Source: Pseudanabaena sp. Salubria-1
GTDB lineage: Bacteria > Cyanobacteriota > Cyanobacteriia > Pseudanabaenales > Pseudanabaenaceae
DNA length: 64,000 bases
Assembly: GCA_023336205.1 (NCBI GenBank)
Contig: JALQCR010000035.1
Span: 2,930 to 66,929, forward strand
Direction of reading: 5' to 3'
A model generated the notes under the pieces. That model searched no databases. It was not told the origin of the DNA and worked only from the letters and a program-made list of their open reading frames with translations. The position numbers and the translations under genes were made by a program. This document shows, piece by piece, positions 38,058-41,000 of this stretch (position 1 is its first letter; each line of letters begins with the position of its first letter).

Positions 38058-41000
38058 ATGTCCTTGGAATCGCCTAAGCTAGATCAACGTAGTTATGAAG
38101 ATATTGTCCAGCATAGTGTCAAGCTGGCAGAATCCTACACGGATTGGCGATCGCCAGAATCTAAATCTTCTCAATCTGGTGATGTTGGTCTGGCGCTGAT
38201 CCGAATTTTTGGTCACATGATGACGGTAGTACAGGATCGCCTCAATCAGGTTCCTAATCGCAACCAGCTTGCATTTATGAATCTGATCGGTACAGAGTTG
38301 ATCCCACCGCAGCCGTCACGGGTTCCCGTCACCTTTAATTTGGCGGCAGGGAGTCCTGTGGAAGCTTTGGTTCCAGCCCAGACGAGAATTGCTGCTCCAC
38401 CACCAGAGGGGGACGATGAAGAGGTGGTGTTTGAGACAGAGCGAGAGTTACTGGTTACTGATACTCAACTCAATTCAATTTTTGTGATTGAAGATCGCGA
38501 CTACTATAGCGATCGCTATGTCGCGGCAGTTGTTGATGCTGCCCATGAGCCATTCCATATCTTTTATGGTGACAAGCCAGTCGCCCATGATCTGTATATA
38601 CATGGGAAAGATCTCTTTGATTTGCCGAAGTTGACGACAATCACGGTGACCTTTGAGACGAACTCTCCTGAGAGTGCCGCACAACTTGCTTTTCGGTTGC
38701 GAGATTGGAGGACATGGGATGGCAAAGTTTGGCAACCTTTGACGACGGTTGCATGTGCGTGTGGTGATGAAGCGGCACGATCGCAGCAGGTACAAGTCAC
38801 GCTCTCGCAATTGCCGAAGCTGAAAGAGGTAGAGGTGGATGGCGTTTCTGCAAAATGGCTCCGGGTGAGTTTGAGTCCCCATCATCGCCAAAATTTACCT
38901 GAACTGCGTTCCAGCCTTGTAACCACCCATATTGATCAAACGGCTCTCCCAAAAGAGTGCTTTTTCAATACAATTAAGCTAGATCTCAGCAAAGATTTCT
39001 ATCCCTTTGGGACAACGCCGCAATATAACGACACATTTCTGATGGCGTTAGATCCCAGTCTGATTCAACCAAGCATGGCGATCGCAGTACAAGCGCAGTT
39101 AAGCCAAGTACCTCGCTATACAGATGATTTGGAATTACTTTGGGAAGTGGGCTGTGGTCAGCAATGGCAGAGCATTGAAAATACAGAGGATACTGAAAAA
39201 TTTCGGTGGGTATCGGATACGGCTCCGTTGCGATTAGTGGCAGGAAATGTGACAGGGACATTTCAATTTCCTGCGAACCTACCGCCATTGCCTATGGGTG
39301 AGGAAAGTTATTGGCTAAGGGCGCGGATTGTGCAGGGCATATATGGAAGCCGAGGACGTACCCGTCAATATGTGATGTATAACGATGTCACCATGCTTTC
39401 GACCGCGATCGCGATCGGTCAAACGGAAATAGTGGTGGATAACATTGACGCTTTGGAGATCGAAGATACCATCCGTCTCCAGTCAGGACTAGACCCAACC
39501 CGTCAAGAGGAAGCCAAAATCGTAGCCATTCGTCCTGCCACATCTGTTGTTGTTCTCAACCGCCCCACCCGTAATGCTTATACTGCGGGTAGTCGTATCC
39601 TTAGCAAGTTTGCAATCACCGAACAAACATCGGATACATTTGAGCCGCCGATTATGCAATCGATCGCTTTGACCTACCGCTGTTTTATGGAACGCACAGC
39701 CAAGATTAAGGCGTATAACGATTTTATTTTTGCGGATAATGATGCCCTAGAGTTATTTCTCCATCGTTCTGCATTCGCTGGCGAAAGGATAGTGCAGTTG
39801 AATGATGTCAGTGCGTTAGCGGTTGGGGAAATAATCAGGTTTATGGGACAGTCGGTCGAACAGGGACAGATTGAACTGATTGATCGCGATCGCCAACAGC
39901 TCATTTTAGTTCAGCCCTTAGCCTATGACCACCTTAACGCTTCTAGGGTGTTGAGAGCATTCCACCCCCTCACTCCCCAACTTAATCGCGATTCTTCCCT
40001 TTATCTAGGGTTTAACCGTCCATTCCCCAATCGCGCCAATACACTTTATCTGCAAATCCAACCACCACACCCTGAAAATGTTGCTCCAGGAGTAAACCAA
40101 ACTAATCATCTAAGTCATGCCCAGCGCTTGGCATGGGAATATCCTAGTCCTAAAGGTTGGCTATCCTTAACCGTAAGCGATGAAACCCAAGGATTTTTAG
40201 AAAAGGGGCTGCTCCAGTTTGTGGGGCCAACCGATTGGATGGCTTCGCCCCATTTCGGGCAGCAGCGTTATTGGTTACGGGTACGGCAGCAGCCGTTAGA
40301 TTGGCAATCCTTACCGATGGTGCTGTTTTATCTGTGGCAGTGGGCGATCACCTTTGAGCTATATAACCTCTACAGCATGATGCGTTACTTTGCGCGTCTA
40401 GTGGCTCGCGCAGGTGATTTCCCTGTGCCGCCTCGTCTCTGCTCTGTACGCACGAATACGACTTGGGCAAATCAATCGATCACATTGAATGGAGAAGTAC
40501 TGGGATCGAGTAATCAAGAACCCCATCAGGTATTGAAGGTAAGTCAATTTCCAATTTTGCGAGGTGAGGTCTTAACGATTGAGGAGGGATGCTTGCCGTC
40601 GGAGTCAGAACAGCAATATTTACGGCAGGACTTTGGTGATGAGGCGATCGCTGCTCGCTATGATGAAACAGGTCGGCTAGAAACTGTCTGGGTGCGTTGG
40701 CAAGAAGTGCCAGATTTTCACAGCTCAACTGCCAACGATCGCCACTATGTAATTGATCGGCAATTGGGACAAATTCGCTTTGGAGATGGTCAAGCGGGAA
40801 AAATCCCTCCTCGTGGGCGCAATAATATTCGCCTGAATACCTACTACACGGGTGGTGGTATTCGAGGCAATCAAGCGACTCAAACCATTATCGAGCTAAA
40901 GACAACGATTCCCTACATTGCCCAAGTGATCAATTGGGAAGCATCCCAAGGCGGCAGTAACCAAGAATCCCTTGAGCGTTTGAAGGTGCGATCGCCTAAA

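Follow-up and report, generated by a model that had tools for sequence, protein, structure and literature searches.

Introduction

The way in which a contractile injection system (CIS) encounters a membrane decides its mode of action, be it a released extracellular CIS (eCIS), a membrane-anchored type VI secretion system, a thylakoid-anchored CIS (tCIS) or a cytoplasmic CIS that kills its producer. Cis11, a peripheral protein of the baseplate, bears lineage-specific adaptations in both the tCIS and AlgoCIS (a cage and the docking of fibres). We examined a Cis11 protein encoded in 64,000 nucleotides of DNA from Pseudanabaena sp. Salubria-1 (assembly GCA_023336205.1, contig JALQCR010000035.1, positions 2,930 to 66,929 of the forward strand); this whole stretch is called the window, and coordinates without another source refer to it. 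The gene occupies 38058..41672 on the + strand, and its product of 1204 residues (P0001) contains a hydrophobic, aromatic segment that an earlier note on this DNA had put forward as a candidate membrane anchor. The segment appears to be a clade-specific helical hairpin under purifying selection, and it does not look like a transmembrane anchor.

The described system that first invites comparison is the tCIS of Anabaena. Its anchoring in the thylakoid involves an extra domain of Cis12, with a putative amphipathic helix, together with the C-terminal transmembrane helix of the fibre-like protein Cis13 (Weiss et al. 2022, PMC8894136). The earlier note had taken the Anabaena system to be anchored through a baseplate extension; such an extension is real, but it belongs to Cis12 and is joined by the Cis13 transmembrane helix, and it is not part of Cis11 (PMC8894136). 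Three extra domains of the tCIS Cis11 form a cage that contacts Cis12 and Cis13, and a fusion of superfolder green fluorescent protein to Cis12 (sfGFP-Cis12) was cytoplasmic in E. coli (PMC8894136). The Cis12 helix (Weiss et al. 2022) resembles the segment studied here in being a baseplate embellishment that is predicted to be amphipathic and proposed to touch the membrane without a transmembrane helix. However, it resides in another protein, within an unresolved extension rather than a beta-turn, and its membrane binding is putative.

In Streptomyces, Cis11 is peripheral and surface-exposed, and an AlphaFold prediction puts it in contact with CisA, a membrane protein on which firing depends (Casu et al. 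2025, PMC12237407). Therefore, Cis11 as a membrane-facing interface has some precedent, albeit by way of a partner protein.

The product of 38058-41672 is a Cis11/TIGR02243 baseplate wedge protein of a contractile injection system. It matches two family models above their curated cutoffs (TIGR02243 at 6.3e-70 and 236.5 bits, cutoff 155.8; PF04865 at 2.3e-13 and 50.5 bits, cutoff 21.1), and its nearest named homologue, from Pseudanabaena sp. UWO310, is 88% identical. The closest solved relative by sequence is the Cis11 of the S. coelicolor system, CIS-Sc (PDB 9GTP; PMC12237407), which matches at 5.9e-59 as a single sequence and at 5.7e-104 with a profile. An AlphaFold2 (AF2) model of P0001 matches the solved CIS wedge folds in Foldseek (7b5h_AH, 9gtp_1G, 9qgl_A and 7aeb_G, with E values from 1e-30 to 4e-36).

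By sequence comparison the core parts of this system, the sheath and Cis11, are much closer to the cytoplasmic CIS of Streptomyces than to the tCIS. The sheath matches that of CIS-Sc at 3.4e-103 vs. 3.6e-44 for Anabaena All3325, and the single-sequence match of Cis11 to 9gtp stands against only 1.8e-4 for Anabaena All3317. P0001 and the 9GTP Cis11 have in common an N-terminal domain, a mid-domain with a W-x-R-x-R strand and an LGxSxGxPxQ motif, and a J domain. However, the S. coelicolor protein has only 652 residues and lacks both the cage-like extra domains and the hairpin. CIS-Sc is also without tail fibres, whereas the operon in the window has a Cis13-like gene, and it has CisA as a membrane partner, whereas the operon encodes no transmembrane protein (no search for CisA was made outside the operon).

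In structure, the best match of the AF2 model is All3317 of the Anabaena tCIS (7B5H; PMC8894136), a protein of 1227 residues, with a Foldseek E value of 4e-36 and a TM-score of 0.46. The two proteins are alike in their length, their extra beta domains and their cyanobacterial hosts. However, All3317 has only about 40 residues between the strand equivalent to YWLR and the J domain, which leaves no room for the hairpin. Two marks of the tCIS, the C-terminal transmembrane helix of Cis13 and a close core sequence relationship to the Anabaena system, are absent from this operon. The wedge fold is also common to Alg11 of AlgoCIS (7AEB), Pvc11 (6J0N, 9QGL) and Afp11 (6RAO), all from released eCIS, with Foldseek E values for these structures of 1.6e-30 (Alg11), 3.0e-31, 3.8e-15 and 8.5e-07. 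The operons of AlgoCIS, PVC and Afp are of the same type as this one, with eCIS_core/DUF4157 cargo, a spike tip and an AAA+ ATPase. None of Alg11, Pvc11 and Afp11 has the hairpin, their sequence alignments to P0001 not spanning the insertion region.

Results

The peptide quoted in the earlier note, LDWQSLPMVLFYLWQWAITFELYNLYSMMRYFARLVARAG, corresponds to residues 747-786 of Cis11 (nucleotides 40296-40415). Translation of the open reading frame (ORF) places it where the note had put it, between YWLRVR (738-743) and PPRLCSVRTNTTWA (791-804). We retrieved 121 homologues with residues 620-960 of Cis11 as query and aligned them by MAFFT. To judge from this alignment, the segment is a genuine lineage-specific insertion of about 45 residues. 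Thirty sequences (P0001-P0030, of which P0001 is the Cis11 of the window) have 42-47 extra residues at the site, whereas P0031-P0121 have only 'YWLRVR-W-QGG-NFRVxPRL' there. Relative to the family consensus, the full insertion covers residues 745-789 (45 residues; 40290..40424, + strand), as judged from the homologues and from profile alignment to 9gtp and 7b5h. All carriers of named source are cyanobacterial (Pseudanabaena, Spirulina, Microcoleus, Anabaena, Tolypothrix, Aphanizomenon and Synechococcales). The sequences without the insert include Nostoc, Calothrix, Leptolyngbya, Pseudonocardiaceae, Streptomyces and Anaerolineae, and many cyanobacterial relatives are among them.

Comparison of sequences and profiles with PDB chains indicated that the segment is absent from every solved CIS baseplate protein. 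In the profile alignment to the solved structures, S. coelicolor Cis11 has a 13-residue loop, GWIRCRVTEPLSGQPFYTTSPTIR, at the insertion site, and Anabaena All3317 aligns up to HWLKVT (906-911) at the YWLR strand. Direct sequence alignment of residues 690-880 with PDB chains gave no match, and 9GTP could be aligned over the site by the family profile alone. The insertion claimed by the earlier note is thus borne out by the comparison with homologues that the note had proposed: both the alignment of 121 sequences and the 9GTP profile alignment contain only a short turn in non-carriers, and no solved eCIS or CIS baseplate protein has the segment. The ancestral turn (W-QGG-NF; loop VTEPLSGQPFYTT in 9GTP) is rich in Gly, Pro and polar residues, and its length varies among homologues. 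At the same turn P0043 and P0050 have 2-3 additional residues and P0098 has an unrelated 15-residue tandem duplication (DTSQFRIPPKNTDTSQFRIPP), which together suggest that the turn may be a permissive, surface-exposed hotspot for insertions.

AlphaFold2 was applied to the Cis11 monomer with a 95-sequence alignment (mean predicted local distance difference test score, pLDDT, 85.4; predicted template modelling score, pTM, 0.71). By DSSP assignment of the model, the insert is predicted to be a helical hairpin that hangs between adjacent strands of an otherwise all-beta mid-domain. Helix 1 comprises residues 754-765 (MVLFYLWQWAIT; 40317..40352, + strand; pLDDT ~70-73) and is aromatic and uncharged in this genome. 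The linker F766-E767-L768 joins it to helix 2 at residues 769-786 (YNLYSMMRYFARLVARAG; 40362..40415, + strand), which is amphipathic and bears Arg residues. The insert is anchored on its N-terminal side by the beta-strand that contains YWLRVR (residues 735-744; 40260..40289, + strand; pLDDT >90) and on its C-terminal side by the strand PRLCSVR (residues 793-799; 40434..40454, + strand). The pLDDT is 70-77 within the insert vs. 91-94 in the flanks. The site is where the extra cage-like domains join the conserved core. A literature search found neither a paper on an amphipathic or hydrophobic insert in connection with Cis11 nor one that describes a CIS of Pseudanabaena, and a clade-specific Cis11 hairpin is previously undescribed.

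Two YWLR(A/V)R motifs occur in Cis11, at residues 417-423 and 738-743. They are about 320 residues apart, and each closes a beta domain. This pairing suggests that an internal duplication of the beta domain that hosts the insert gave rise to the extra, cage-like part of the protein.

The history of the insert was examined in a FastTree phylogeny from which the columns of the insert had been left out. All carriers belong to a single clade (support 1.0), to which the insert-less P0032 is sister, and P0031 is the only insert-less member nested within it (supports 0.96-0.99). Since the carriers are monophyletic apart from this nested sequence, the simplest history would be a single gain followed by a single clean in-frame loss. 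P0031 comes from a metagenomic cyanobacterial relative (locus L002, 3601-7071) and reads RARKNSN-DFPVPPRL at the site, with the turn back at its ancestral length. On the alignment, it is a natural allele in which an in-frame deletion has removed precisely the hairpin. Its operon is otherwise intact and collinear with those of insert-bearing loci, which fits a hairpin that is dispensable for operon integrity and has an accessory function of whichever kind. A partner gene gained together with the insert was considered and rejected, as the genes that run from the tube initiator through to the AAA+ ATPase are arranged in the same order in the window, in the insert-bearing locus L004 and in the insert-lacking L002; this comparison starts at the tube initiator, the upstream part with the Cis13-like gene being missing from the P0031 contig.

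Among six congeners (~88% identical), the ratio of nonsynonymous to synonymous substitution rates (dN/dS) was 0.045-0.095 over 40 insert codons vs. 0.086-0.097 in the rest of the gene. Therefore, the inserted peptide is under the same purifying selection as the rest of Cis11. Conservation of individual residues was counted over 24 non-redundant carriers that are about 55% identical overall. W762 and R776 are invariant in all 24, and P753 (22/24), L756 (22/24), L771 (21/24), M775 (20/24), Y772 (19/24) and A763 (19/24) are strongly conserved, whereas positions 755, 761, 765, 770, 780 and 784 vary freely. Mean column entropy is 1.60 in the insert vs. 1.01 in the flanks. In the flanking strands, W739, R741, R743, R793, T799 and N800 are invariant in the same 24 carriers; across the 95 sequences W739 and R741 are invariant and R743 is nearly so. 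By symmetry about the 766-768 turn, the conserved residues would pair across the hairpin as W762/Y772, Y758/R776, L759/M775 and A763/L771. On such a pairing, what is conserved would be mostly the zipper between the two helices (W762, R776, L756, L771, Y772 and M775) and not the hydrophobic exterior of the hairpin.

We also looked for a source of the inserted DNA. The 138-nucleotide insert is single-copy, with no second copy in the 7.1-Mb genome, and a hidden Markov model (HMM) made from the insert of 30 homologues found only itself in a six-frame translation of the genome (next match E 0.05). No direct, inverted or terminal repeats were found to bracket it. An origin from a miniature inverted-repeat transposable element or other repeat was rejected on these three grounds, and internal duplication was rejected because the HMM matches Cis11 just once.

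How hydrophobic the insert is depends on the scale used, and the hydrophobicity of its exterior is not conserved across carriers. On the Kyte-Doolittle scale the best 19-residue window of the insert reaches 0.98, below the transmembrane criterion of 1.6, and ranks sixth in Cis11. A simple sum on the Hessa biological scale gives +6.5 kcal/mol and no transmembrane call. On the Wimley-White interface scale, residues 749-766 (WQSLPMVLFYLWQWAITF, an uncharged 18-mer) score -8.85 kcal/mol, the lowest of all 9645 18-residue windows of the 20 operon proteins (next best, -4.9). The Wimley-White octanol value of the same 18-mer is favourable as well (-13.5 kcal/mol), and this is the sole scale that favours a transmembrane segment. 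Aromatic residues (10-11 in number) make up 25-28% of the insert vs. 8.9% of the whole of Cis11, and helix 2 (window 771-788) has a hydrophobic moment of 0.53, the top value in the protein. The earlier note had described the segment as exceeding the remainder of the protein by far in hydrophobicity, and had taken it for a transmembrane or amphipathic helix. The first description stands on scales that credit aromatic residues but not on that of Kyte and Doolittle. As to the second, the segment is predicted to be helical and has the high hydrophobic moment and the aromatic and basic composition of an in-plane amphipathic helix, but it lacks what a transmembrane helix has, namely 19-21 or so mostly apolar residues, hydropathy of transmembrane grade and a compatible topology.

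Across the 30 carriers, the minimum on the interface scale extends from -8.8 kcal/mol in this genus to -1.5 kcal/mol in P0011 and P0013. Their inserts have 4-12 charged residues, with 12 in P0011 and P0013, and a net charge of -3 to +5; orthologues place Asp, Lys, His or Arg within helix 1. Nor does another protein of the operon supply an obvious membrane segment, as no operon ORF contains one of transmembrane grade on the Kyte-Doolittle or Hessa scale.

Discussion

We consider the insert to be best explained as an accessory hairpin on the surface, in contact with protein and no transmembrane anchor, with roughly even chances of this being correct. An alpha-helical module of about 45 residues would have entered the conserved mid-domain of Cis11 at a short turn on its surface that links two adjacent beta-strands. 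Its two helices would zip together through their conserved residues, and the hairpin would display a second face, hydrophobic overall although its residues vary. The most likely packing surface for this face is protein, either the rest of Cis11 itself or an adjacent subunit of the baseplate, for which the 328-residue Cis11-like paralogue, the long Cis12 extension and the Cis13-like fibre described below are candidates. The surface location and the protein partner of the hairpin are inferred. In favour of a protein contact are conservation that falls on particular residues, as expected of helices zipped together in a fold and less so of a lipid anchor defined by composition, an exterior that is not conserved, and the example of the tCIS, in which embellishments of Cis11 bind protein (PMC8894136).

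Several results weigh against a protein contact. The lower pLDDT of the insert relative to its flanks could mean that the hairpin is loosely packed in the monomer. It has been lost in P0031 while the operon stayed intact and in the same gene order, so that no obligatory partner is evident. A contrast of carriers with non-carriers did not bring out hydrophobic positions that cluster in the host domain to complement the hairpin; the candidate sites (144, 149, 231, 728, 945, 1025, 1053, 1090, 1124 and others) are scattered and confounded by the single gain, and a complementary patch was rejected. Finally, the most interfacially hydrophobic 18-mer of the operon, with Arg residues beside it, resembles a membrane-binding element.

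This resemblance is the basis of the main alternative, in which the hairpin is a monotopic, in-plane docking device whose helix 1, by its aromatic face, and helix 2, with its Arg residues (R776, R780 and R784), lie in the interface of the membrane. A baseplate with six or more such hairpins would then tether the particle, or transiently dock it, to a thylakoid, cytoplasmic or post-release target membrane. The extreme Wimley-White values, the top hydrophobic moment of helix 2 and the abundance of aromatic residues all speak for such docking, a moderate pLDDT is compatible with a protruding element, the operon encodes no transmembrane protein to anchor the particle instead, and the carriers of named source are all cyanobacteria. 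However, a hydrophobic exterior is not kept across the clade, as the weak minimum and high charge of P0011 and P0013 illustrate, and the invariant W and R within a residue-specific pattern suggest packing rather than contact with lipid. Many cyanobacterial relatives do without the hairpin, and its clean loss in P0031 was accompanied by no other change seen at the locus. We therefore regard interfacial docking as possible but unlikely. A more specific form, in which 6-12 peripheral, aromatic and Arg-bearing hairpins attach a Streptomyces-type CIS directly to the thylakoid or cytoplasmic membrane in a subset of cyanobacteria, is more doubtful still. If true, docking hairpins would replace both the Cis13 transmembrane helix of the tCIS and the CisA partner of Streptomyces, and would constitute a third, independently evolved coupling of a CIS baseplate to the membrane of its own producer. 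A transmembrane helix or hairpin that integrates Cis11 in a membrane, as the octanol value of the uncharged 18-mer might suggest, is rejected and has, in our estimate, next to no probability. Both flanks of the segment belong to adjacent strands of a single soluble domain, a topology that makes one pass impossible. For a double pass the helices are too short, because about 20 residues each are needed and those predicted have 12 and 18, with a polar three-residue turn that contains E767 between them. The Kyte-Doolittle and Hessa values and the charged residues that orthologues have in helix 1 argue in the same direction.

Two further readings concern no membrane at all. The hairpin could be a regulatory latch or trigger that, through contact with the side of the sheath initiator or of the spike, acts on firing and not on where the particle is located. 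Its place at the junction of the cage-like domains with the conserved core and its accessory, lineage-specific nature would suit such a role, but in this analysis a latch is indistinguishable from a contact of another kind between proteins, and we rate it as improbable. Alternatively, the segment might be a functionless relic of a small mobile-element or duplication event in a permissive loop. The other insertions at this turn (P0098, P0043 and P0050), the dispensability of the hairpin in P0031 and the higher column entropy of the insert are in keeping with neutrality. However, dN/dS equal to that of the rest of Cis11 largely refutes it, and W762 and R776 have remained invariant across sequences that are only about 55% identical. 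Purifying selection, together with single-copy DNA, an HMM without another copy and the lack of bracketing terminal repeats, argues that the insert is not a mobile-element passenger, and the neutral reading seems very improbable.

Returning to the hairpin as a protein contact, an ordinary contact between subunits would make it a routine structural embellishment, and most such inserts turn out to be subunit contacts. A selected, clade-specific aromatic hairpin is nevertheless a compact and deletable handle. Because it can be deleted, and because a natural deletion allele exists in P0031, it could help to tell whether particles of this cyanobacterial CIS lineage float freely, are tethered or dock when required.

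The locus and its genomic setting

A complete CIS operon on the + strand surrounds the Cis11 gene. It encodes, in order, the Cis13-like protein, a Pvc16-like cap, two sheath proteins, tube protein and a CIS5-like tube adaptor; a 1046-residue protein, a LysM tube initiator, and gpD-like, VgrG-like and gp25-like proteins; Cis11, the 328-residue Cis11-like protein and the P2_I-like Cis12; and a spike tip, a 2435-residue eCIS_core/DUF4157 protein, a YbjN-like protein and an AAA+ ATPase. Cis11 is thus flanked by the gp25-like Cis9 before it (37638-38024) and the P2_I-like Cis12 beyond it in a sheath-tube-spike operon, as expected for this protein.

The Cis13-like protein (23594..25606, + strand; 670 residues) is of the tail-fibre type and matches NF053767 CIS13_fam with its N-terminus (3.4e-09). 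It has no C-terminal transmembrane helix (Kyte-Doolittle maximum 1.13, Hessa minimum +10.1). Cis12 (42644..44530, + strand; 628 residues) belongs to the Tail_P2_I family (PF09684, 5.8e-14) and matches 9gtp_E over residues 62-195 (2.8e-08); it gave no match to the 7b5h Cis12 at E<=0.01. It is about 430 residues longer than the 190-residue Cis12 of S. coelicolor, the extra length being a C-terminal extension. In the Anabaena tCIS, the thylakoid membrane is reached by an extension of Cis12.

Between Cis11 and Cis12, in the frame of Cis11 and one codon past its stop, lies an ORF of 328 residues (41676..42662, + strand) with a weak match to PF04865 (5e-4). The N-terminus of its product is 31% identical to residues 1-77 of Cis11, and the product is a candidate wedge neighbour of Cis11. 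It is kept both in the insert-bearing L004 and in the insert-lacking L002. A truncated paralogue of Cis11 is one possibility for this protein, which might then occupy the second of two Cis11 places in a 2:1 wedge, as in CIS-Sc or pyocin.

A second, divergent set of CIS-like genes lies elsewhere in the genome, on contigs C50 (~14-35 kb) and C78 (~7-10.6 kb). It encodes sheath, tube, VgrG-like, gp25-like and Cis12-like proteins and a short Cis11 of about 680 residues, 25-27% identical, that lacks the extra domains as well as the hairpin.

Upstream of the CIS operon, the window contains a conjugative type IV secretion cluster on the - strand (3022-19192), with a topoisomerase III-like protein, a TraG/VirD4 coupling protein, TrbI/VirB10, a VirB4/HerA-like ATPase of 919 residues and several ORFs with transmembrane segments. 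A DDE transposase of the Tn3 family lies downstream of the operon (56246-57946, + strand). A Cis11 orthologue occurs in 7 of the 38 genomes sampled from the genus. Given this distribution, the conjugative cluster, the Tn3 transposase and the small size of the contig (67.7 kb), the CIS locus looks accessory and borne on a plasmid or an integrative and conjugative element.

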